From Candidatus Hydrogenedens sp. (GTDB lineage Bacteria > Hydrogenedentota > Hydrogenedentia > Hydrogenedentales > Hydrogenedentaceae), in NCBI GenBank assembly GCA_035361075.1, contig DAOSBX010000013.1, positions 10,160 to 74,159 on the forward strand: DNA of 64,000 nucleotides, read 5' to 3'. Under the pieces are notes generated by a model. The model was given only the letters and a program-made list of their open reading frames with translations. It did not search any database and was not told where the DNA came from. This document shows positions 680-19,129 of this stretch, in pieces. Each line of letters starts with the position of its first letter. Position 1 is the first letter of the stretch. A program made the translations under genes and the position numbers.

Positions 680-1885
680 TTATTCATATCGCAATGCTTC
701 AACAGGGTCAACACTTGCCGCTTTCAAGGCAGGATAGACGCCAGAGACGACGCCCACAGCGGAACTGAAAAAGAACGCTGTAAGTATTGACCAAAGTGAT
801 AAGCCAATAGGCAGACTGGGATATAATGCGCGAATAACTGTTGACCCGATAAAACCTAAAAAGATACCTGTCATACCTCCGAGCACACTTAATGTGATGG
901 ACTCAACAAGGAACTGAAAACCGATATCCGCACGAGTTGCACCGACCGCCATACGGATACCCACTTCCCGAGTTCGTTCGCGTACAGATACAAGCATAAT
1001 ATTCATAATTCCTATCCCACCGACCAGCAGTGAAATACATGCAATCCCGACAAGCATTAGACGTAGCATACTGAATATTCGGGAAAATGCGGAAAGCATA
1101 CTATCCTGATTAGTGATTGTAAAATCTTCTTCATTGTCATGGGCGGAACGGACAATTCTTCTTGATTCTTCAGTTGCTCTCGGAATATCTTCCTGAGTGC
1201 GAGCCCCAACAAGGATTTCCATAACCTCTTCTATGTTAAAAATGCGTTGTGCACTGGGTAGTGGAACAATTACCAAATCGCCAAGGTCGATACCTAAAGC
1301 CATTCCACGTTCCTCTAATATTCCTACGATGGTATGTTTAGAGCCGTTGATTGAAATTTTTTCATACAGGGCACGATGTGTGCCAAAGAGTTCTTTTTTT
1401 ACAGTAGTACCGATGATACAAACTCTGCTATTGCGTTCAATATCTTCTTCCGATAGAAATCGTCCAATTTGTGTGTAAAGTTGTCGAACCTTCTCAAAAT
1501 CAGGAGTTGTCCCAATAAGCAGTACATTCCGCTGTCGGTTCTTATAGCGAATATTTGCTAATCCTAAGGTATTTGAGGCAACTCCGATAATGCCAGGTAC
1601 TTTCCTTTTAATCTGTCTTGCTATTTCGTATGTGAGTTTGCGGTGACTCCCAGCACTTATGGGAAACATACCAGTTGTTTCCTGCCTACCTGGGGTTATG
1701 ATGATAACATTACTACCCATGATTGCGAATTCGCGTTCCACGTAGGCTTGTGCCGATTCGCCTAATGCAATAAGAAGTATAACTGACATCACCCCAATAA
1801 TGACCCCTAATGCGGTAAGTGCTGCGCGCATCTTATTCTGATTGAGTGCGATGATAGCAGTTCGTATTAATTCCCAGAAGGTCAT
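680..1885 (-). CDS. ABC transporter permease, FtsX/MacB family
   Basis: 401 aa. N-terminal TM helix, large periplasmic domain, then a C-terminal cluster of 3 TM helices, as in MacB/LolC-type permeases. Last gene of an ATPase-adaptor-permease operon. Confidence 0.85.
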   Translation of the reverse strand: MTFWELIRTAIIALNQNKMRAALTALGVIIGVMSVILLIALGESAQAYVEREFAIMGSNVIIITPGRQETTGMFPISAGSHRKLTYEIARQIKRKVPGIIGVASNTLGLANIRYKNRQRNVLLIGTTPDFEKVRQLYTQIGRFLSEEDIERNSRVCIIGTTVKKELFGTHRALYEKISINGSKHTIVGILEERGMALGIDLGDLVIVPLPSAQRIFNIEEVMEILVGARTQEDIPRATEESRRIVRSAHDNEEDFTITNQDSMLSAFSRIFSMLRLMLVGIACISLLVGGIGIMNIMLVSVRERTREVGIRMAVGATRADIGFQFLVESITLSVLGGMTGIFLGFIGSTVIRALYPSLPIGLSLWSILTAFFFSSAVGVVSGVYPALKAASVDPVEALRYE

Positions 1886-1888
1886 AAA

Positions 1889-3136
1889 CTACTCTCCCAG
1901 CGAAGAGACTACGTCAACACGAGAACCGTCTACCAGTCCTTTTATACCAACAGATGTGATAATAGTTTCTCCTTCTTTAAGACCCTTTATGATTTCTCGT
2001 GTTTCCCAATTACCAATGCCGATGGTAACAGGTCGACGGATAGCCTTTCCTTGTTCCAATACGAAGGCATATTCATCGCGGATAAGGCTTTCACTTGGTA
2101 CGTATAGTACGTCATCTTTCTCCGATACTATAATGGTAACATCAGCAGACATGCCAGGCATAAAGTTTTCCTGCTCTAAAAATCGAACTTTCACTGTAAA
2201 TGTTCGTGTAAATTCCTTACTGATAGTGATAGTCGGAGAAATCTCGATTATCTCGCCTTGAAATACTTTCCCAGGAAATGCATCTAATTCAATCCGCGCT
2301 TTTTGGTTAAGAGAGACTTGACCGGCATTGGCTTCGTCAAATGGTGCTTCTACATAGAGGTCTTTATCATCTATGAGGTACATTAAAGGTAGTCCCATTG
2401 CAACACCTTCCCCTTCATGGATGTTAATAGTGGCAACAACCCCATCAAACGGTGCCCTAATAATAGCCTTATCACGGGTAGCCTGTGCTGCAAGAAGTGA
2501 CGCTTTTGCTTGTGCAACTGCGGTCTCCCCTGCTTTTACTTCCTGTTCACGAACTTTAATCTCTTTTACTCCGACTAATGCTGATTGATAACCCTCTTGA
2601 GCGACTCGATATGCTAACTCTATTTTTTCCTGTTCACCGGGGGAAAGAATCCCCTGTTCCCGTAGTTTGTTAGCCCGTTCATAATCAGCCTCTGCCTGCT
2701 TTAACTGTGCTTGAGTTTGCTTCAAACGTGATTCTGAAAGTTCCTTCGCTACTTCGTAGCTAACGCGTGCCTGTTCCAGTCGCGTCTCTGCAACGAGTAG
2801 GTTTGCTTCGGATAGGGCAACTTGGGCATCTAAATCCTCATGGTTTAACTCAAGCAATATATCGTTTTTAGAGACGCGCTGACCTTCTTTTACATGTACT
2901 ATGGAAACAGTCCCGAGTGTTCCTCCTGCAATCATAGAACGTCGGGTTGATGTAACTGTTCCAGAAGCGAAGGCAGAAACGGTTTGCTGAACCTTTCCCC
3001 TCTTAACAGTATCCACAGTTACCTGAATGGGTGGTGTGTAAAAAAGGAAATAATACAAGGGTACGAAGATTAATGAAAGAAGGACAAGAATAAGAAATAT
3101 TCTTATGACATAGGTTTTGTACTTTGTTTTTGCCAT
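1889..3136 (-). CDS. Efflux periplasmic adaptor / membrane fusion protein (HlyD/MacA family)
   Basis: 415 aa. N-terminal TM anchor, long coiled-coil region (LEQARVSYEVAKEL...QAEADYERANKL) flanked by beta-barrel/lipoyl-like segments. Sits between the ABC ATPase and the permease. Confidence 0.8.
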   Translation of the reverse strand: MAKTKYKTYVIRIFLILVLLSLIFVPLYYFLFYTPPIQVTVDTVKRGKVQQTVSAFASGTVTSTRRSMIAGGTLGTVSIVHVKEGQRVSKNDILLELNHEDLDAQVALSEANLLVAETRLEQARVSYEVAKELSESRLKQTQAQLKQAEADYERANKLREQGILSPGEQEKIELAYRVAQEGYQSALVGVKEIKVREQEVKAGETAVAQAKASLLAAQATRDKAIIRAPFDGVVATINIHEGEGVAMGLPLMYLIDDKDLYVEAPFDEANAGQVSLNQKARIELDAFPGKVFQGEIIEISPTITISKEFTRTFTVKVRFLEQENFMPGMSADVTIIVSEKDDVLYVPSESLIRDEYAFVLEQGKAIRRPVTIGIGNWETREIIKGLKEGETIITSVGIKGLVDGSRVDVVSSLGE

Positions 3137-3822
3137 GTATCTGATATCACCTTTCCATCTCTAAATCGTATTATTCGTTGAGCCCGTGAAGCCACATCGC
3201 TTTCGTGGGTCACCATTACAATAGTATGTCCTTTCCTGTGGAGTTCATCAAAAATTTCTAATATGTTTTCACCACTAACGGTGTCTAAATTTCCTGTAGG
3301 TTCATCTGCTAAAATAGTTGATGGGTTATTAACCAAAGCCCGTGCAATAGCCACTTTTTGTCTCTGTCCACCGGAAAGTTCATTTGGTCTATGATAGATA
3401 CGGTCTTTTAATCCGACAGCGACCAATGCTTCCATTGCTCTCTGCCGTCGCTCTTTTCTGGGGATGCGGTCATAAATAAGAGGGAGTTCCACATTTTCTA
3501 ATGCGGTTGCTCGACTTAACAGATTAAAGTTCTGGAACACAAAACCTATCTCATGATTGCGTAGTTGAGCCAGTCTTTTTTCAGAGAATCTATGAACTTC
3601 TTCTCCAAAGTATCGGTAAGATCCGGAAGTGGGTCTATTTAAACAACCAATAATATCCAAGAAGGTCGTTTTCCCCGAACCCGACGGCCCCATAATTGCC
3701 ACGTACGTGCCCACGTCGATTGTTAGTGAAATTGAATCTAATGCAATAACTTTATTATCCCCAACTTCGTAAATTTTTGTAAGATTTTCGACTTCGATCA
3801 AAATCGACGAATTGTGTTTCAC
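3103..3822 (-). CDS. ABC transporter ATP-binding protein (MacB/LolD-like)
   Basis: Walker A GPSGSGKTT, ABC signature LSGGQRQKVAIARAL, Walker B ILADEPTGNLD, H-loop. 239 aa. Overlaps the downstream adaptor gene by 34 nt, suggesting translational coupling. Confidence 0.9.
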   Translation of the reverse strand: MKHNSSILIEVENLTKIYEVGDNKVIALDSISLTIDVGTYVAIMGPSGSGKTTFLDIIGCLNRPTSGSYRYFGEEVHRFSEKRLAQLRNHEIGFVFQNFNLLSRATALENVELPLIYDRIPRKERRQRAMEALVAVGLKDRIYHRPNELSGGQRQKVAIARALVNNPSTILADEPTGNLDTVSGENILEIFDELHRKGHTIVMVTHESDVASRAQRIIRFRDGKVISDTWQKQSTKPMS

Positions 3823-3894: not shown

Positions 3895-5370
3895 TTATTT
3901 ATTTAAAAACCCTTTAGGTAATTCTGTTGGGGGTTCATACTTATATGGTTCTGTGTCAGGGACAATTCGAACAGGAGTCGTGAAAGTAAAGGTGGTGTTG
4001 TCCGGTCCGGCAAATTCCATCTCGACAAGATAGGCTTTCCACCCTTTTTCAGGTGGACTGACTTTTCCTACATAAGTCCCATCTCCTTGGTCTGTAAGTG
4101 GTGTTGGCTGATAGGCTTTGCCTAAGACATTAAGTCGGAAGTCACGTGCGTTGGGATTCGTTGCTTCCCAAAGAGTTACCTTTGTTGGTTTATCTTTGGT
4201 TTTCACGATAGTTGTATAGTCGTCTGGAAATGACCATGAATATTGAGGGATTGGTTTTTCAAATATAATTGCCTTATAAAATGCAATGACACTGTTAATA
4301 ACCTGTGGGGTTAAGCCATGCCCTGTGTTCGGAACATAGCGTATATAGGTTGGTGATGGCAAATCAGATAGGTAGAATTTCCAAGAGTCAGGCAAAAAGA
4401 ATTCGTCTCCACAGGAATTAATTAAGAATTTAGGCATTGTGAGACGGTCTTTGTAACTATAGGGGTCTACAATTTTTAACATTGATGCGAATTCGGGAAC
4501 AACTAACCAATCCATGATGTTCATCTCTACATAATCGTTAATTGCAGGTGCCCAACCGCCATAAACAGCATAATGATGTTTAAATGAAGGAACCAAATTT
4601 AACAAATCGATTACAATGGGTACACATGCAACAACTCGGTTATCTACTATTGTCGTTGTCCACGTAGTCCAGCCACGTTTTGATGCCCCTGCCACAACGA
4701 ACTCTTTTATCTTAACTTTTCCCCCTTCTTTCGTTTCGCAGAGCGTTTGGATAGTGTCCATTGCACGAACTACCGCTTTGGTCATAGGCATCCGTGTTAA
4801 CCATTCTGGGTCACCTGTTTTTAAGTATTTGTCCCAGTTATAAGCAATGATGCTATCCTCTGAACGCTTTCTATTATTATCATTTGCGAATACTAATGGT
4901 TGGTTAGGAATTTGTCTGATTTCTGCGACAACAGTTTCTACTTCTTTGGCTACTTTACGGAGCAATGGGCTGGATGATGTTGGAGGCTCATCTGTATTTT
5001 TACCACCTGAAATGATTAACAGGGCAGAAGGCTTTTTTACTTTTTTGGGCACTACAATCGTTAACCAATGCGTCCATACGGTTCGGTCAACCTCTTCAGG
5101 TTTTCTCCATGTTTGCGATGTCATTTTAATGTAATGAATACTTACATCTTCGACTTTCTCACTCTTTATTAATTGATAATTATAAGTTGGGTCTGGTTTA
5201 TAGACATATATGTCGAGAGGAGAAGGACTCGTTGTTTCTCTTGCATGAGTAATCTCTCCTTGATGTGATGTAGTGAGAGGAGACCTGGTTGCACAACCTA
5301 ATGAAAAAGTGACTAACGCTACCAGGAGAATAAGTTGTGAAAAATACATTTTTTTCATAATGGGCTTCAT
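3895..5370 (-). CDS. Lipoprotein, alpha/beta-hydrolase-like. Resembles the PhoPQ-activated pathogenicity-related protein family (PF10142).
   Basis: Signal peptide with lipobox (LGC). GASKRGW motif and size about 490 aa resemble PF10142 members. Not verified by search. Confidence 0.45.
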   Translation of the reverse strand: MKPIMKKMYFSQLILLVALVTFSLGCATRSPLTTSHQGEITHARETTSPSPLDIYVYKPDPTYNYQLIKSEKVEDVSIHYIKMTSQTWRKPEEVDRTVWTHWLTIVVPKKVKKPSALLIISGGKNTDEPPTSSSPLLRKVAKEVETVVAEIRQIPNQPLVFANDNNRKRSEDSIIAYNWDKYLKTGDPEWLTRMPMTKAVVRAMDTIQTLCETKEGGKVKIKEFVVAGASKRGWTTWTTTIVDNRVVACVPIVIDLLNLVPSFKHHYAVYGGWAPAINDYVEMNIMDWLVVPEFASMLKIVDPYSYKDRLTMPKFLINSCGDEFFLPDSWKFYLSDLPSPTYIRYVPNTGHGLTPQVINSVIAFYKAIIFEKPIPQYSWSFPDDYTTIVKTKDKPTKVTLWEATNPNARDFRLNVLGKAYQPTPLTDQGDGTYVGKVSPPEKGWKAYLVEMEFAGPDNTTFTFTTPVRIVPDTEPYKYEPPTELPKGFLNK

Positions 5371-12170: not shown

Positions 12171-12543
12171 GTAGTTATCTCCTTTAAAATGGCTTATTTT
12201 TAAATTTACTGGGAAGTCTCAACCATAAACGAAACAGCCCAATTTTACATTAGCATACTCCTAATCCCATGCAGAAATCAAATCCTTCATTTTTGGGTTC
12301 ATTTTGTAATGTGTGTAATGTAAATGCTAAATAAATATTAAGAGGATAAAACGAGTTATTTCAGAATTCAAAAATAAAGGAATTACTTAACAATTTATGT
12401 GGAGTTTTAAAAAGATATATCTTCTGCTGTCACGAATATGAAATTATGAAAGTGATAAAATCAAGATGATTTGTTTTTGTGGTTTTTGTTAAACTTTATT
12501 TGGAATAGTTAGAATAATAATAAATATTAACAAGGAGTTGTTT

Positions 12544-13326
12544 ATGAGTTATCAGTTTTTAATTACTGAAAAGGTTAATTCCTGTTTTTGGATTACATTA
12601 AATCGGCCTAAGGTTAATGCTCTATCCCGTGAGTTGTTGGCTGAAATTTATCATGCGATTGAAGAAGCAGAGACAAGTCCTGATATTAAGGTTGTAATAA
12701 TTACGGGAGGAGAAAGTAAGTTTTTTGCAGCTGGGGCAGATATTCCAACCATTGCTCAGGATTTAGATGACCCGATGGGAGAAGGGAAAATGTTATCCCA
12801 AGGAATTAAAACGATGAATCGGATAGAGGCATGCTTAAAACCTGTTATTGCGGTAGTAAATGGCTTTGCATTAGGTGGTGGATGCGAACTTGCATTAGCA
12901 TGTCATATCCGTATAGCTTCGACCAATGCTAATTTTGGACAGCCAGAGATTAACTTAGGTATTATCCCTGGTTGGGGTGGAACGTTCCGATTACCACGGG
13001 TTATTGGAGAAGGAAGAGCAATGGATTTATTGTTAACAGGTAGAAGTATCACAGCAGATGAGGCTCTAAAATATGGGTTAATTACTAAATTGGTAGCCCC
13101 TGAAGAACTAAAGAAAACTGCACTGGAATTAGCAGACCTTCTTGCCAGCAAGCCTCCTGTTTGTATCCGCCAACTTATTAAGTTACAGCAAAAGCGTATA
13201 GCAGACCCTGCCCATGCTTGTGAACTTGAGAAATTAGCCTTTGAACGATGTGCCAAAACGACAGATGCTCGTGAGGGAATTGAAGCCTTCTTAAATAAGA
13301 GACAGCCTCAATATAAGGGTCGATAA
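12544..13326 (+). CDS. Enoyl-CoA hydratase/isomerase (crotonase family)
   Basis: Crotonase-fold motifs ITGGESKFFAAGADI and VNGFALGGGCELALACHIRIA. ATG at 12544 is 6 nt after AGGAG, preferred over the TTG at 12538 in the ORF track. Confidence 0.85.
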   Translation: MSYQFLITEKVNSCFWITLNRPKVNALSRELLAEIYHAIEEAETSPDIKVVIITGGESKFFAAGADIPTIAQDLDDPMGEGKMLSQGIKTMNRIEACLKPVIAVVNGFALGGGCELALACHIRIASTNANFGQPEINLGIIPGWGGTFRLPRVIGEGRAMDLLLTGRSITADEALKYGLITKLVAPEELKKTALELADLLASKPPVCIRQLIKLQQKRIADPAHACELEKLAFERCAKTTDAREGIEAFLNKRQPQYKGR

Positions 13327-13492: not shown

Positions 13493-13515
13493 AAGGACAT
13501 TTGTCCTTTTTGTTT
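13493..13515 (+). terminator. Rho-independent terminator after the enoyl-CoA hydratase gene
   Basis: AAGGACA tt TGTCCTT hairpin (13493-13508) followed by TTTGTTTGTT. Confidence 0.5.
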
Positions 13516-13577
13516 GTTCAGTCGATTCTTAATGATAGGTAGTGCTAAAATAGGAAAGTAAACCCTGAGACCGAAAG

Positions 13578-15959
13578 ATGAAAAATTATTATTGGAAGCT
13601 TTTTTTATACGTCAAAAAAATTTTTTTGTGCATTACCATACTTCTAATTCTAATCTACCCATTGAAAGCATATCCCTTGAAAGCAGGGTCTGCCAAGGCG
13701 GAGATTACACCTGATTTAGGTGTGCCATTAAATGGGTATGGTGCACGGTTAGGGAAAGGTGCACGTGCCGTTCATGACCCACTCTGGGTACATGTCCTTT
13801 ATTTGAATGATGACCAAACAGAGGTATTTATTGTATCGTTAGACCTTTGTGTTATTGACCGTGAACTTCGTGACCGCGTTATTGCAATGGCACCTGACAA
13901 TATTTCACCTACAAACATTATCATGACCGCAACGCATACACATAATGGCTTTGGTGGAATGTGTAAGTATTACCCAATTCGATTTGTTTCAGGAAGATAC
14001 ATACCCGAACTAATTGAACGTACTGCACGAATTATTGCCCAAACCCTTCGAGAAGCGAAAAATAACGCAAAAAATGCAGTATTAGGATATGGGACTATCC
14101 AGCAGACAGATTTAACATGTAACCGACGCTATTCAGGTGGTCCTATGGACCCTCAAGTCGGTTTTATCGTTTCGGAAGATGCAAATGGGAATGAGATTGC
14201 TATTGTAGCGAATATGGCAGGTCACCCAACGTCTATTGGTGATGAGGATTTTTTCTCCTTCTCTGCTGATTATCCAGGCTATTTTTATCGTGAAATAGAA
14301 AAATTAGCCAGTCCAGGATGTGTACCCCTATTTTTGAATGGAGCGGAAGGAAACCAAACTATTCAAGCACCAGAAAATACTTCAGGGTGGGCAAGAACAG
14401 AGAAGGTAGGTCAATTATTAGCCCAACGGATTTATGACGCTCAAAAGAGCATACCGTTTTCAGATGTAAAACTAAAATTCAATTCACAAGAAATTGATTT
14501 GCCCATGAGCATTGCTGAGTTTTTCCCAAAAAAAATAGTGTTCCAATCATTACAGATCAATGACCTCGCGATTTCTTTCTTTCCTGGTGAGCTATGTGTT
14601 GAATATGCACTTCAGTTAAGAGAACTTGCGATTATGGCAGGGTTCAAAGCCCATTTTACTGTGGGCTTGTCTAATGATTACCTTTTATATTTTGTGCCCA
14701 AGCACCTTTTATTTGACCGCACTTATGAAGCAGGGATGCATTTCTTTGGACCGCAAGCGGAACAATGGGTTATTAATTCCTGTCTTAACGTATTAGGAGC
14801 GGAGCAGTTCAAACAGCAGATAGATAACACCACTCTACCTGAGAGAGAACAGACAGATATTGGGATAAGTATCATGCGGTTAACTGGAACACCTTACCAG
14901 AGAGGACTTACACGGGGAAGATTATATAAAGAGATTGTTCAGAAACGATATGAACAACTTATTTTATCCCCAGTAAAAGAAGGCAAATATCTGCCCGAAG
15001 AAGGATTATTATCTTCCTTGCCAACTTCATGGATTGATGCAAGTAGTATTATCCTACCAGCAATGGCTATTAGCATTCGTCCATGGGCTTCTATGGTGCA
15101 TCCAGATGTAATTGAAGAGCTGACAGGTCTTTCTGACGGGACAGAAGTAGCCTTCGATAAAATATGGCTTTTACAAAATGCACTCAATATAAAAACTGCC
15201 CAGACTTATAACCCATTATTTGACACGCCTTTATGCACTGCTATCGCAGTATTTGGAGAACGCGCTGGAGCAAAAGATTTATTGATAGGGCATACAATTG
15301 ACTGGGCTGAAAGTGAAACGCCAACTGTTTTTTACCATCAACCAAACGATGGTATTAAGTTTGTAGAAGTAAGTTTCCCATGGTTTTATGGTACCTTATG
15401 TGGGATGAATGAAGCAGGAATTGTACTATCAGTCACACGTGATACGAGCAAATTGGATTTATCTGAGAAAAACCCAGGACCTGAATTTACATTGAAACAT
15501 ATCTTGTCAAAGTTAACAAACTTTGAAACTGTGATTAGTGAAGTAGAAAAAATAAAATTTCCAGCTGGGTATCACACTATCATTGCTGGTAAAAGCGCAA
15601 AAGGAAAATGGGTAGCCCAAACGTTCCCCTCACATCCTTCGGAAGATATTTCTACGGAGGCATTGAAAAATCAAGGTGTTGTATTGGGGTGTGGTTCATT
15701 AGTGTCTTCATCTGAAACTACAGTAAAGAGATATTCGATATTACTTAAGAAGGTTGAGGAGGAGCGAATTATAAGTACGGACGAATTAAAAGCCATAATG
15801 ACATTTTCTGATGAGGAGGACGTTTCACTTCCTCAGATATGGAATGAACAAAGTAGGTGCACTGTAATTTTTGAACCTACTGAAAAAAAGATATGGATAA
15901 CGATAAGAAGAGATGATGGAAAACCATCAAGTTATATATCAATGGAGTTAAACAACTAA
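13578..15959 (+). CDS. Fusion protein: N-terminal neutral/alkaline-ceramidase-like domain plus C-terminal peptidase-C45 (acyl-CoA:6-APA acyltransferase-type Ntn hydrolase) domain
   Basis: N-terminus: signal/TM then GYGARLGKGARAVHDPLWV...ATHTHNGFGG, matching the neutral ceramidase catalytic domain (ATHTHSGPGG-type motif). C-terminus: PLCTAIAVFG (candidate autoproteolytic Cys nucleophile) and GMNEAGIVLSVT, typical of the C45 family. Confidence 0.7.
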   Translation: MKNYYWKLFLYVKKIFLCITILLILIYPLKAYPLKAGSAKAEITPDLGVPLNGYGARLGKGARAVHDPLWVHVLYLNDDQTEVFIVSLDLCVIDRELRDRVIAMAPDNISPTNIIMTATHTHNGFGGMCKYYPIRFVSGRYIPELIERTARIIAQTLREAKNNAKNAVLGYGTIQQTDLTCNRRYSGGPMDPQVGFIVSEDANGNEIAIVANMAGHPTSIGDEDFFSFSADYPGYFYREIEKLASPGCVPLFLNGAEGNQTIQAPENTSGWARTEKVGQLLAQRIYDAQKSIPFSDVKLKFNSQEIDLPMSIAEFFPKKIVFQSLQINDLAISFFPGELCVEYALQLRELAIMAGFKAHFTVGLSNDYLLYFVPKHLLFDRTYEAGMHFFGPQAEQWVINSCLNVLGAEQFKQQIDNTTLPEREQTDIGISIMRLTGTPYQRGLTRGRLYKEIVQKRYEQLILSPVKEGKYLPEEGLLSSLPTSWIDASSIILPAMAISIRPWASMVHPDVIEELTGLSDGTEVAFDKIWLLQNALNIKTAQTYNPLFDTPLCTAIAVFGERAGAKDLLIGHTIDWAESETPTVFYHQPNDGIKFVEVSFPWFYGTLCGMNEAGIVLSVTRDTSKLDLSEKNPGPEFTLKHILSKLTNFETVISEVEKIKFPAGYHTIIAGKSAKGKWVAQTFPSHPSEDISTEALKNQGVVLGCGSLVSSSETTVKRYSILLKKVEEERIISTDELKAIMTFSDEEDVSLPQIWNEQSRCTVIFEPTEKKIWITIRRDDGKPSSYISMELNN

Positions 15960-15967
15960 AAACAGAT

Positions 15968-17545
15968 ATGAGCGAAACGTTACGGGTATATTCAACCCCG
16001 AAATATGGTACGCGAAGGCATAGCCGAGGAATTTTTAAGTTTTTACTTAATCTATTTATTGTGTTGATTTTACTTGCAATTATTTTAACCCTCTGGCTAT
16101 CAAGAGATTCATATCCTGCAGAAAATTTTATTCCAAAGCAGACAAATTTCCAGATTTTCAGTCCTCGATTAATGCAAAATCGGATGCTTCTCGCAAATAC
16201 GCCGTTATGGAACTTAGTTGAACCAAATTCTCCAGCTATAAAGGTAAAGCAGTTATTATCAGACCAAGAGCAGATTCCTTTATGGGTCGTCAAACATTTA
16301 ATCTATGACTTCTTCTATTTTTCTATTAATGATCTCGATACATTTAATGATTATTTAATTATCGTTCGCTTATCCAGAGTCGGCTGTGTCCTTGAAACGT
16401 TATTTACCTTATCCCACACAGTAGAAACAGATTGGGCAGGTGGGTTAAATTTAAAATTTTTACCTGACCAAAAACTTTATTACACACGAAAAGGACGAGT
16501 TCTATTATTATCTCCAAACAGGCAAACAATGATTAATTCCATTACCCAAGATATCAGAACGCAATCCGAAACAATCCTTTCTGCAGAAATCTCAAAAAAT
16601 CAGGAAAAACACCTCGCATGGGGGACAATAAAAATACCTTGGGAAAATATAAAATCTTTAATTCCCGAAGTAAAATTCTATATAGGATTAACAGAAACTC
16701 AGTTAGGTGTGAAAAGTGAAGCCACTATCCATCCTGACCCTGAAAAACCATGGACTTTATTATTAGCTCAATTAATTTCAAAACCTATTCGGGAACCGAT
16801 AGAGGGCTCATTTTCATGTGCAATTGACACAGGAGTCCCCTTAAAGACATGGATTCGGGCTTTTGAAACAATTCCTACAACAACGGATATACTTGTTCCT
16901 CCAATAGAAAAAGAAATTTCTCTATTGGATTGGATAAAAACCTTTTCTCCTTTAGTCAATAATCAGTTCTATCTTTCGCTGGATGGCTTTTATGTAGATG
17001 AAATTATCCCGTTTATGCCTAAATATTGTATAGTTGCAACAACACAGCCCAATATATGCGAAAGTTTTACCCAATCACTTACACGTATAAATGTGAACAT
17101 ATTGGGAGAAAAAAATAAAATATTGCCGACTGAGAAAGCAAATGAATTTATTTTCCCGATGTTCGGAAGTTCGCAGACAGATTTACATATTAATTGCTCA
17201 GAGAATCAACTAATCTTTTATACCAATGCGGAACTTGGAAACTTACTTACTGAGCACCTCAAATCCCAGATATCTAACCAAGAAAACAGTTCATCTTTTA
17301 TCCTCCAGTTGAAACCTGAAAAACTAATAACGGAGTTTGAAAATTCTTTACTACCATTACAAGAGTCAAACATGTTCAAATTTCGTAACCCTGAGAAAAT
17401 AAATAATCTGTTCAGTAAAATCAAGATATTCAAAGAATTTAAGATTAAAATCAACCTAAATCAGGGGCAGGTTAAGGCAATAAGTATCTTAAATTTTGGT
17501 ACTGAAGTAAGTCAAACAAATATGGAAAGTTCAAAACAAAAATAA
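15968..17545 (+). CDS. Hypothetical membrane-anchored protein (single N-terminal TM, large extracytoplasmic domain)
   Basis: 525 aa. TM helix at residues about 24-44. No recognisable motifs. Strongly AT-rich codon usage. Starts 8 nt after the ceramidase/C45 fusion gene. Confidence 0.5.
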   Translation: MSETLRVYSTPKYGTRRHSRGIFKFLLNLFIVLILLAIILTLWLSRDSYPAENFIPKQTNFQIFSPRLMQNRMLLANTPLWNLVEPNSPAIKVKQLLSDQEQIPLWVVKHLIYDFFYFSINDLDTFNDYLIIVRLSRVGCVLETLFTLSHTVETDWAGGLNLKFLPDQKLYYTRKGRVLLLSPNRQTMINSITQDIRTQSETILSAEISKNQEKHLAWGTIKIPWENIKSLIPEVKFYIGLTETQLGVKSEATIHPDPEKPWTLLLAQLISKPIREPIEGSFSCAIDTGVPLKTWIRAFETIPTTTDILVPPIEKEISLLDWIKTFSPLVNNQFYLSLDGFYVDEIIPFMPKYCIVATTQPNICESFTQSLTRINVNILGEKNKILPTEKANEFIFPMFGSSQTDLHINCSENQLIFYTNAELGNLLTEHLKSQISNQENSSSFILQLKPEKLITEFENSLLPLQESNMFKFRNPEKINNLFSKIKIFKEFKIKINLNQGQVKAISILNFGTEVSQTNMESSKQK

Positions 17546-17708: not shown

Positions 17709-18071
17709 GTGAATGATGACTGTTGTTATGGTAAAGCCTTCCTATCAGTAGGTTGTAATCGTGATTTGTTTCTCTCCAATCTTTATCAATTTATCGAGTT
17801 TTCCATCGAAGACGATATCATTAATGAAATGATACAATACCTATGCGAATTTTCACCCCATCACATTAAAGTGCTTCATAAAAATATCTTGCAAAAACGT
17901 GAGATTGAGCGACATGTTTGGATTGAGTCTGAAAAGCATGGTAGAGACATGAAATACGAAGCCACCTATGAGTGGATTATAAAGTATGCCCCCATATTTA
18001 ATAATTGGTATGAACAAGAATACGGGAGTAAGTTTCGTTATTTCTCTCTTGTAGCCAGCGTTTCAAATTAA
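17709..18071 (+). CDS. Hypothetical small cytoplasmic protein (120 aa, GTG start)
   Basis: ORF with AGGAG RBS at correct spacing. Cys/His-containing N-terminal half (CCYGK...C...H.HH). No recognisable family. Confidence 0.4.
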   Translation: MNDDCCYGKAFLSVGCNRDLFLSNLYQFIEFSIEDDIINEMIQYLCEFSPHHIKVLHKNILQKREIERHVWIESEKHGRDMKYEATYEWIIKYAPIFNNWYEQEYGSKFRYFSLVASVSN

Positions 18072-18184: not shown

Positions 18185-19129
18185 ATGACTAATTGCAACA
18201 CACGAAATACAATAATTCTCCTCGCCATATTCATATTTACATTGCACCTGTTTTTAGCGGGGGAAAACATAGTCAAAGTAAAGGTCATAGAAATTTCTGA
18301 AGGAGACCTGTTTACTGCTCAAGGTATCGATGATTCACAAGAATTCAAGATAAGAATATACGGTATAGATAGCCCTGAACAAGGCCAAAACTATTTTGAG
18401 GAGGCAAAAAAAATTCTTTCAGACCTTATAAAAGATAAAGAAGTAAACATTGATATTTTGACACAAGATAGTATCGGCAATAAGGTTGCTCATGTTCAGA
18501 CAGACGATGCTACTAATGTTGAAGAATTGATGGTTAAGGAAGGTTATGCGTGGTGGGATGAGGAGAACGCAAAAGAAGCAATTGAACTGAAAAAACTTTG
18601 TGCAGAGGCTATTCGACAGAAAAAAGGTTTATGGGCTGATATGTCTCCATTATCTCCATGGGATTATCGTAGAGGTAAAGGGTTAGCACAGATAACCTAT
18701 AAAGTGGAAAAGAAAGAAGAGAAGAAAACGGAAGAAAAAGAGGAAAAGAAGGTGCTAAAAGCCAAGGGGAATGAAGTATACAAAGGCACATTTTCTACTT
18801 CGAATGCACCCTTTGTAGATGTTTCAAAAATCAATTTTAATGAAGTAAAAGTAGACCCAAATGAATTGTTAAGCAAGCATCTGCCTACAGTGGCAAAAGA
18901 TTCGTCAGGAAATGCTATCGGCTTGGCAGTCCCAAATATTAACCAAATCCCTTATGCTAATGCTCTTGGTTTCCAAGATGGTGATATTATTTCGTCTGTG
19001 AATGGTATTCAAATAAATGACTTCTCTCAAATTATGCCAATATATGAACAGCTTAAAGGTGTGAAGGAATTATCTGTTCAGGTAATACGGAATGGAAAGC
19101 CGATAACACTTAATTTCCGCCTCCCCTAA
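18185..19129 (+). CDS. Secreted staphylococcal-nuclease (SNase/thermonuclease)-like nuclease with a C-terminal PDZ-like domain
   Basis: Signal peptide. SNase core (KVKVIEISEGDLFTAQG...IRIYGIDSPEQGQ...AKKILSDLIKDKEVNI...EELMVKEGYAWW). KE-rich linker. C-terminal GLAV...GFQDGDIISSVNGIQIND...ITLNFRL PDZ-like segment. Confidence 0.7.
   Translation: MTNCNTRNTIILLAIFIFTLHLFLAGENIVKVKVIEISEGDLFTAQGIDDSQEFKIRIYGIDSPEQGQNYFEEAKKILSDLIKDKEVNIDILTQDSIGNKVAHVQTDDATNVEELMVKEGYAWWDEENAKEAIELKKLCAEAIRQKKGLWADMSPLSPWDYRRGKGLAQITYKVEKKEEKKTEEKEEKKVLKAKGNEVYKGTFSTSNAPFVDVSKINFNEVKVDPNELLSKHLPTVAKDSSGNAIGLAVPNINQIPYANALGFQDGDIISSVNGIQINDFSQIMPIYEQLKGVKELSVQVIRNGKPITLNFRLP

Follow-up and report, generated by a model that had tools for sequence, protein, structure and literature searches.

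The 64,000-nucleotide stretch of DNA analysed here (the window), taken from contig DAOSBX010000013.1 of a Candidatus Hydrogenedens sp. assembly (GCA_035361075.1), carries a gene that joins two catalytic domains of separate families in a single polypeptide: a neutral-ceramidase-type zinc amidase and, behind it, a cysteine proenzyme of the C45 family, which belongs to the N-terminal nucleophile (Ntn) hydrolases. The gene is one unbroken open reading frame (ORF) with an ATG start that encodes a protein of 793 aa, and it lies between an upstream enoyl-CoA hydratase (crotonase) gene and a downstream gene for a membrane-anchored protein of an orphan family (Table 1). A first-pass annotation, made from the sequence without database searches, had proposed this fusion from short motifs, which lie at residues 53-57 (GYGAR), 66-71 (HDPLWV), 118-127 (ATHTHNGFGG), 551-560 (PLCTAIAVFG) and 609-615 (GMNEAGI). 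Judged by its domain matches, the protein is a member of the PF04734 superfamily and, narrowly, of the C45 family; with its low equivalog score, its missing tail domain and a deletion of about 80 residues, it is not an orthologue of neutral ceramidase.

Table 1. Coordinates of the features discussed, in the window and (last nine rows) in the loci compared with it
Feature	Position	Strand	Basis or remark
Fusion gene: signal peptide, neutral-ceramidase-type Zn amidase, C45 Cys-Ntn proenzyme	13578..15959	+	ORF, Pfam/NCBIfam, AlphaFold, Foldseek, homologues
Sec-type signal peptide, residues 1-31, MKNYYWKLFLYVKKIFLCITILLILIYPLKA	13578..13670	+	putative cleavage site
Ceramidase-type catalytic domain, residues 32-420	13671..14837	+	alignment to 2zws and 4wgk; Foldseek
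C45 pro-region (alpha-subunit), residues 425-552	14850..15233	+	mostly helical, disordered linker 544-550 at its end; NF040521, AlphaFold, Foldseek
C45 beta-subunit, residues 553-793	15234..15956	+	predicted self-cleavage Leu552/Cys553; conserved residues, Foldseek
Partner gene, 525 aa, orphan family	15968..17545	+	starts 8 nt after the fusion stop codon
Partner N-terminal stretch, residues 1-21	15968..16030	+	MS[DE]xxRxY and Arg/Lys-rich stretch
Partner transmembrane helix, residues ~22-44	16031..16099	+	single; preceded by 5 K/R residues
Enoyl-CoA hydratase (crotonase) gene	12538..13326	+	PF00378, E 1.6e-66; system membership uncertain
Terminator-like hairpin and T-run, AAGGACATTTGTCCTT then TTTGTTTGTT	13493..13518	+	pattern scan; ~70 nt upstream of fusion start
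120-aa ORF	17709..18071	+	
Staphylococcal-nuclease and PDZ protein	18185..19129	+	
PhoPQ-activated pathogenicity-related protein	3895..5370	-	PF10142
MacB-type ABC transporter with HlyD-type adaptor	680..3822	-	
Cys-less fusion, L028	5884..8358		C45 Cys and following Asp lost
Cys-less fusion, L036	902..3334		C45 Cys and following Asp lost
Cys-less fusion, L032	2..2005		C45 Cys and following Asp lost
Cys-less fusion, L034	312..2573		C45 Cys and following Asp lost
Cys-less fusion, L029	1907..4348		C45 Cys and following Asp lost
CCA-adding/poly(A) polymerase-type gene, L059	4358..5914		Omnitrophota
CCA-adding/poly(A) polymerase-type gene, L046	4490..5947		Planctomycetales
Fused form, L042	5596..8370		uncultured bacterium
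FabF-like beta-ketoacyl synthase ORF, L042	3419..4657		same strand as the L042 fusion

The N-terminal half matches Pfam Ceramidase_alk (PF04734) with an E value of 2.9e-15 and 56.4 bits against a cut-off of 32.1. The Pfam alignment covers only residues 36-184 although the full domain is present, because PF04734 is prone to partial matches, as the many partial hidden Markov model (HMM) hits that it yields attest (PMC4443539). Foldseek superposes the model of the window protein on the neutral ceramidase of Pseudomonas aeruginosa (2zws; E 1.8e-26, 479 aligned columns, rmsd 3.8 Å). When catalytic residues were mapped by HMMER alignment to this enzyme and to human neutral ceramidase (4wgk), the candidate zinc ligands H120, H216, E338 and Y371 fell on H97, H204, E411 and Y448 of the P. 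aeruginosa protein, and the putative catalytic residues H122, R183 and Y383 on H99, R160 and Y460, seven positions whose roles we take to be those assigned in published ceramidase structures. None of the seven varies in an alignment of 66 family sequences, and nearly all of the 84 loci compared keep them. G53-Y54 match G25-Y26 of the P. aeruginosa enzyme, and Y54 is nearly invariant in the same alignment, being replaced by Phe in two loci. The ceramidase C-terminal domain, which the first-pass annotation had called absent, was detected by domain search neither in the window protein nor in 50 diverse relatives, 49 of which match PF04734 and 49 the C45 model described below (E<=1e-5).

The C45 half had originally been placed at about residues 540-793, with a cysteine positioned like an autoproteolytic nucleophile. 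The nucleophile assignment agrees with our results (Cys553), and the boundary has to be moved: the unit is a whole proenzyme that starts at about residues 425-436 and includes a pro-region of some 120 residues ahead of Cys553. NCBIfam C45_proenzyme (NF040521) matches residues 436-772 over its whole 313-position profile (E 9.6e-24), at 84.3 bits, just under its cut-off of 85; that this model misses its cut-off by 0.7 bits is probably the reason why public records name only the ceramidase half. Pfam AAT (PF03417) matches residues 566-777 with 24.1 bits, just over its cut-off of 23.2. None of the residues C553, T554, D575, N611 (part of the GMNEAG motif) and R718 varies among the 66 sequences; in profile alignments, 'lCT' falls on 'aCT' of 3gvz, a C45 structure, and GMNdaGL on GMNEKGL of choloylglycine hydrolase. 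The AlphaFold2 model built from the same alignment (pLDDT 90.5, pTM 0.87) is confident across the domain junction and places helices in the pro-region (residues 439-539). Its sole segment under pLDDT 50, residues 544-550, is the loop right before Cys553, and such disorder is what the linker of a self-cleaving Ntn enzyme would show. Foldseek aligns the unit to the uncleaved precursors of acyl-CoA:isopenicillin N acyltransferase (AAT; 2x1c, E 2.7e-14, target TM 0.71 to 2x1c/2x1d), N-acylethanolamine acid amidase (NAAA; E 1.6e-10, TM 0.70) and acid ceramidase (E ~1e-8), with mature forms of AAT matched too (E ~3e-14), and the order of PDB matches runs from neutral ceramidases through AAT, NAAA and acid ceramidase to bile-salt hydrolases and 3gvz. 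The profile match to the NAAA beta-subunit is weak (E 3.8e-5), and C45 models score far better. Of the tests that the first-pass annotation had proposed, the mapping of conserved residues and structure prediction came out on its side, with seven ceramidase and five C45 positions invariant and both folds matched by Foldseek; the HMM searches are clear for PF04734 and borderline for C45, with one model just over and the other just under its cut-off.

That the product is a single secreted polypeptide, also claimed at the outset, is consistent with the Sec-type signal of the window protein and with its relatives, since 64 of the 66 family members have a basic n-region followed by a hydrophobic h-region and the consensus AxA|LEAGAAK just ahead of the fold. 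Public gene calls use alternative start codons that give proteins of 760, 765 or 777 aa. A GT9 heptosyltransferase of the lipopolysaccharide (LPS) core machinery is encoded in the window, so the host is probably an LPS-bearing diderm with a periplasm, and there we infer the fusion enzyme to reside. This location bears on the earlier suggestion that the protein might transfer acyl groups as well as hydrolyse amides: AAT-like transfer dependent on coenzyme A (CoA) is unlikely because acyl-CoA is not available in the periplasm, and any transfer would have to be CoA-independent.

The first-pass annotation had named a frameshifted or misassembled join of two genes as one of the findings that would undo it. 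Such an artefact can be set aside with near certainty, given the continuous ORF, its presence in independent records and in 36 further loci, and the confidently modelled junction. When 5.8 billion proteins were searched by word index with the window protein, the matches comprised more than 120 clusters at 90% identity, drawn from JGI, NCBI, ENA and Logan assemblies and all of 720-840 aa (E <1e-160, query coverage 91-100%) and most with both Pfam domains, plus one extra match that is a 606-aa fragment. One of the matches, P0001, is 100% identical over 98% of the ORF, and at least 10 independent records contain near-identical copies, the contigs being as long as 82 kb. A scan of one genome per species found the fusion in 32 loci (L005-L037 without L030, whose contig ends inside the ceramidase domain), most of them labelled Hydrogenedentota, and the same single ORF recurs in 36 further loci (35 distinct contigs) of Hydrogenedentota species genomes. 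We found no support for an artefact; the split versions of other phyla, discussed below, show that the two units also exist as distinct genes. When 1.84 billion representatives at 50% identity were searched exhaustively with HMMER, 204 matches reached E<=1e-30; among the best 150 representatives, about 65 are full-length two-domain proteins, down to ~25% identity, and the remainder are stand-alone ceramidase-like (~400-450 aa) or stand-alone C45 proteins.

The fusion appears to be the standard form throughout Hydrogenedentota. The idea that its architecture had gone uncharacterised survives in part: our literature searches yielded nothing on the domain combination, on PF04734 paired with PF03417 or on Hydrogenedentes ceramidases, but the protein is common in the phylum and its relatives are annotated, under the source label 'neutral/alkaline non-lysosomal ceramidase N-terminal domain-containing protein' (Candidatus Hydrogenedentota or Hydrogenedens). 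It is a widespread variant built from known parts, annotated by machine only via its ceramidase half. Fusion loci of the Hydrogenedentota type are also held by metagenome-assembled genomes labelled Nitrospirales or Nitrospiraceae (L008, L020, L024, L030 and L033), with 37-46% identity to the window protein; the partner gene accompanies them in L008, L020 and L033 (the contigs of L024 and L030 end too early to judge) and the crotonase gene in L008, L020, L030 and L033. The taxonomic labels or the binning of these genomes may be wrong.

The gene that follows the fusion had been put forward as an orphan, membrane-anchored protein and possible partner, and the comparison strengthens this proposal considerably. 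Homologues with 17-58% identity lie directly 3' of the fusion, after a gap of 8 nt or often overlapping it, in 34 of the 34 Hydrogenedentota loci with room for the gene (33 distinct contigs, L002 and L005 being on the same one). Because of this unbroken association, we regard the 525-aa protein, on the evidence of gene order, as a real and conserved partner of the fusion. Its predicted layout comprises a cytoplasmic N-terminus, one transmembrane helix and, in the periplasm, an alpha/beta body that takes up about 480 aa, and the family shares the N-terminal motif MS[DE]xxRxY, a basic stretch, the helix and the motif W-x-TRD-x-x-P. The partner has no sequence match in Pfam, NCBIfam, PADLOC or the PDB; Pfam searches with 41 family members gave nothing consistent and a profile search of the PDB no match. 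Partner homologues were not found outside Hydrogenedentota, and a deeper profile search recovered only the same 16 clusters. Across about 40 species, few parts of the protein are as well conserved as the 21 residues ahead of the helix, a pattern that suggests a cytoplasmic contact or a sorting signal.

The most informative comparison is with organisms in which the two units need not be fused. In 47 loci outside Hydrogenedentota, we looked for a C45 gene within 6 kb of the ceramidase-like gene. Fifteen of them have the split, adjacent form, in which a C45 gene (~410 aa) comes immediately after a ceramidase-like gene (~425 aa) and often overlaps it by 4 nt, in Omnitrophota and Planctomycetia; five carry a fusion (L039, L040, L042, L047 and L052); and the remaining 27 have a ceramidase-like gene with no C45 gene within that distance. 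The gene order of the split pairs is the domain order of the fusion, and in one split locus (L059) each of the two proteins has its own signal peptide. The C45 Cys, Asp and Asn are kept also in the distant split and fused forms. In a rough neighbour-joining tree of the N-terminal domains, drawn with no support values, a second fused group falls among the split forms, apart from the Hydrogenedentota clade, and this placement suggests at least two fusion or fission events. Because the same units are fused in some lineages and adjacent genes in others, the pattern argues that ceramidase-type and C45 enzymes work together, and it is the best evidence that they do; the functional coupling of the two halves, which the first-pass annotation had supposed from the chemistry of both, is strengthened accordingly.

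Some of these loci show further features. In L059 and L046 the split pair is preceded by a gene of about 500 codons whose stop overlaps the start of the ceramidase-like gene, a neighbour that thereby recurs in two phyla. We considered it as a counterpart of the partner and rejected it: it encodes a CCA-adding/poly(A) polymerase-type protein with an HD domain, and hhalign against the partner profile gave a probability below 1%. The fusion of L042 is a 924-aa form that carries some 110 additional residues at its N-terminus, before the hydrophobic segment. A FabF-like beta-ketoacyl synthase ORF lies some 0.9 kb upstream of it, with an opposite-strand 286-aa ORF in between, and this neighbour may be a link to fatty-acid metabolism.

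Domain architecture, residue conservation, a signal for export and genetic coupling are shown by the results above. The reading that we favour on this basis, at about even chances, is that of a periplasmic, membrane-tethered, two-site hydrolase of N-acyl amides, probably lipids, that would act with its membrane-anchored partner. Sec export would place the two-site enzyme in the periplasm, where the C45 half would cut itself at Leu552/Cys553 and free Cys553 as the nucleophile; the resulting chains of about 58 and 27 kDa would stay together, like those of AAT, NAAA and acid ceramidase. The zinc site would then hydrolyse an N-acyl amide by the neutral-ceramidase mechanism, and the cysteine site would hydrolyse a second amide through a thioester acyl-enzyme, or pass on the acyl group independently of CoA. 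The partner, predicted to start in the cytoplasm and to lie mostly in the periplasm, could tether the enzyme to the periplasmic side of the inner membrane or present a membrane lipid to it. As substrates, acyl lipids with an amide linkage seem most likely, whether they come from the envelope or from membrane debris that the cell scavenges, among them sphingolipid-like lipids, aminolipids, N-acyl amines and lipid A-type amides, and the freed fatty acid would enter beta-oxidation.

Several observations weigh against this proposal, beginning with the ceramidase half. Its domain has about 390 residues against about 480 in true neutral ceramidases, with some 80-90 residues deleted relative to the region of residues 250-390 in the P. 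aeruginosa enzyme; the tail domain of neutral ceramidases is gone; and the neutral-ceramidase equivalog model NF041649 gives 26.5 bits against a cut-off of 1200. With this deletion and no tail domain, the substrate pocket may differ from that of neutral ceramidases. On the side of the partner, the AlphaFold model is moderate (pLDDT 71, pTM 0.55, from a 16-sequence alignment), and its only Foldseek match below E 1e-3 is a weak one to the Treponema pallidum lipoprotein TP0453 (E 9e-4, TM 0.31-0.40). In the neighbourhood, the crotonase gene of the window is probably a separate transcript, and neighbours beyond the partner and the crotonase gene vary between genomes. Finally, five Hydrogenedentota loci (L028, L029, L032, L034 and L036) lack the C45 Cys and Asp and retain the C45 domain, the GMNE/D motif and the partner gene; two of them, L029 and L034, deviate at zinc-site positions as well. 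Because these five have lost the two residues and kept domain and partner, C45 catalysis is dispensable in some lineages, and the C45 half of this subgroup may be a pseudo-enzyme.

The Cys-less loci lend themselves to a different explanation, in which only the zinc site carries the conserved function and the C45 half is mainly structural or regulatory, for example as a stand-in for the tail domain, as a docking surface for the partner or as a self-cleaving maturation switch, with its hydrolase chemistry secondary. The loss of Cys553 and Asp575 next to a retained C45 fold signature, N-terminal domain and partner would fit this explanation, as would the pTM of 0.87, which points to a fixed packing of the two halves; and the 27 loci outside the phylum with a ceramidase-like protein and no nearby C45 gene indicate that the zinc enzyme can work alone. 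A scaffold, however, would not be expected to keep C553, T554, D575, N611 and R718 invariant in 66 sequences, nor the Cys, Asp and Asn in distant split and fused forms, and since two of the five odd loci deviate in the N-terminal domain too, genes in decay or faults of alignment may account for some of them. We therefore consider a purely zinc-dependent function unlikely, if worth keeping in mind.

The same losses speak against an obligatory acyl-carrier role for the cysteine, and hence bear on a second alternative, a CoA-independent transacylase in which one site would strip the acyl group from an N-acyl lipid and the C45 cysteine would pass it, as a thioester, to another amine, so that the head-group or acyl composition of the envelope would change. 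The closest structural relative of the C-terminal half, AAT, is an acyltransferase, and related enzymes of both kinds are known to run in the synthetic direction: neutral ceramidases also catalyse the reverse reaction, and amine N-acyltransfer is a further activity of Cys-Ntn bile-salt hydrolases. Close genetic linkage and a membrane-anchored partner would suit such a channelled reaction, but the periplasm offers no acyl-CoA. On balance, a transacylase seems to us an improbable answer.

A third alternative concerns the substrate, which might be no lipid at all: acylated signals or antibiotics (acyl-homoserine lactones (AHLs), beta-lactam side chains, lipopeptides) or amides of peptides or peptidoglycan. 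C45 and other Ntn families include penicillin side-chain enzymes and AHL acylases, MacQ and cephalosporin acylase are weak Foldseek matches, and the shortened ceramidase domain may not form a deep lipid pocket. The matches to AHL and cephalosporin acylases have, however, a TM of only about 0.2, and the best matches of both halves are lipid or acyl amidases. Moreover, a gene that is universal in its phylum and travels with a membrane partner looks like a housekeeping function of the envelope, rather than quorum quenching or resistance, and the PADLOC defence models gave no match at E<=0.01 for the fusion, the partner or the 120-aa ORF beyond it. A non-lipid substrate is, in our view, very doubtful, and the two-site hydrolase of N-acyl lipids remains our preferred reading.

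Of 37 related loci, 16 have the crotonase gene upstream of the fusion, in some cases as close as about 8 nt to its start (L004), an association that speaks for the preferred reading; in the window, a 251-nt AT-rich spacer separates the two genes. The terminator-like hairpin in this spacer might terminate the transcript of the crotonase gene or serve as an attenuator; the site counts that the promoter and terminator scan gave for the region are not clearly above shuffled expectation. The 251-nt leader matches no Rfam family of riboswitches or other known RNAs, and the wider window holds no lipid-pathway clue besides the crotonase gene.

Other genes of the window were noted in passing. The 120-aa ORF, which has no family match, lies just 3' of the partner; it is about 74% identical in L002/L005 and L006, and no relatives of it were detected in more distant loci. 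The protein encoded at 18185-19129 has a staphylococcal-nuclease domain and, at its C-terminus, a PDZ domain similar to that of GspC (type II secretion), an unusual pairing. On the opposite strand, the gene of the PhoPQ-activated pathogenicity-related protein adjoins the MacB-type transporter genes; the envelope functions of both are unrelated to the fusion.

Both catalytic domains come from well-studied families, and the literature that we found contains no description of their obligate pairing. No genomic pattern supports a functional link more strongly than occurrence as a fusion in some lineages and as adjacent genes in others, and the genes, being clonable, open a concrete way into lipid or acyl-amide metabolism in three phyla of which few or no members have been cultured. 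Nature supplies the controls: ceramidase-only forms, split pairs, fusions and Cys-less fusions. A bolder version, to which we attach a low probability, is that the fusion and its lineage-specific partner make up a periplasmic machine, so far undescribed, that would remodel or recycle envelope lipids with amide linkages, with the two sites acting sequentially or handing over the acyl group free of CoA. If correct, this version would point to an unrecognised metabolism of N-acyl lipids, sphingolipid-like or aminolipid, common to Hydrogenedentota, Omnitrophota and Planctomycetota.

Among known systems, the neutral ceramidases (the P. aeruginosa enzyme PaCD, 2zws/2zxc, and human ASAH2, 4wgk) share the catalytic-domain fold of the fusion (Foldseek E 1e-24 to 1e-26), the identity of the zinc-ligand and catalytic His/Arg/Tyr positions and an extracytoplasmic location, at a sequence identity to its domain of only 16-18%. 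Closer to it are the stand-alone bacterial 'ceramidase N-terminal domain' proteins (~400-450 aa), which have the same short catalytic domain and residue set and are its closest non-fused relatives; in the 27 loci mentioned above they occur with no C45 unit fused or adjacent, and we found no characterised member in the literature. For the partner, the likeness to TP0453 (PDB 3k8g-3k8j) is that both are membrane-associated and periplasmic, as predicted in the case of the partner; with its low TM, a moderate model and no sequence similarity, it is a hint and not an assignment.

The C45 half can be compared with AAT (2x1c/2x1d/2x1e) and CV2077 (3gvz), with which it shares the plan of the proenzyme, made of a pro-region, a linker and a Cys-Thr pair at the cleavage point. 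Cys553 aligns with the Cys of 3gvz, and AAT has the same alpha-beta-beta-alpha Ntn fold; sequence identity is about 12%. Unlike AAT, the fusion is exported, so that acyl-CoA cannot be its donor, it is joined to another amidase, and it has lost its nucleophile in a subclade. Acid ceramidase (ASAH1) and NAAA share with it the architecture of the precursor and the fold, and they act on lipid amides, which suggests a possible working mode for the C-terminal half. In sequence this half is closer to C45 than to the NAAA/acid ceramidase family, and the fusion has no saposin-type helper, unlike ASAH1 and NAAA. The likeness in fold is thus one at the level of the clan, and what the fusion has in common with ASAH1 and NAAA is a working principle rather than membership of their family.

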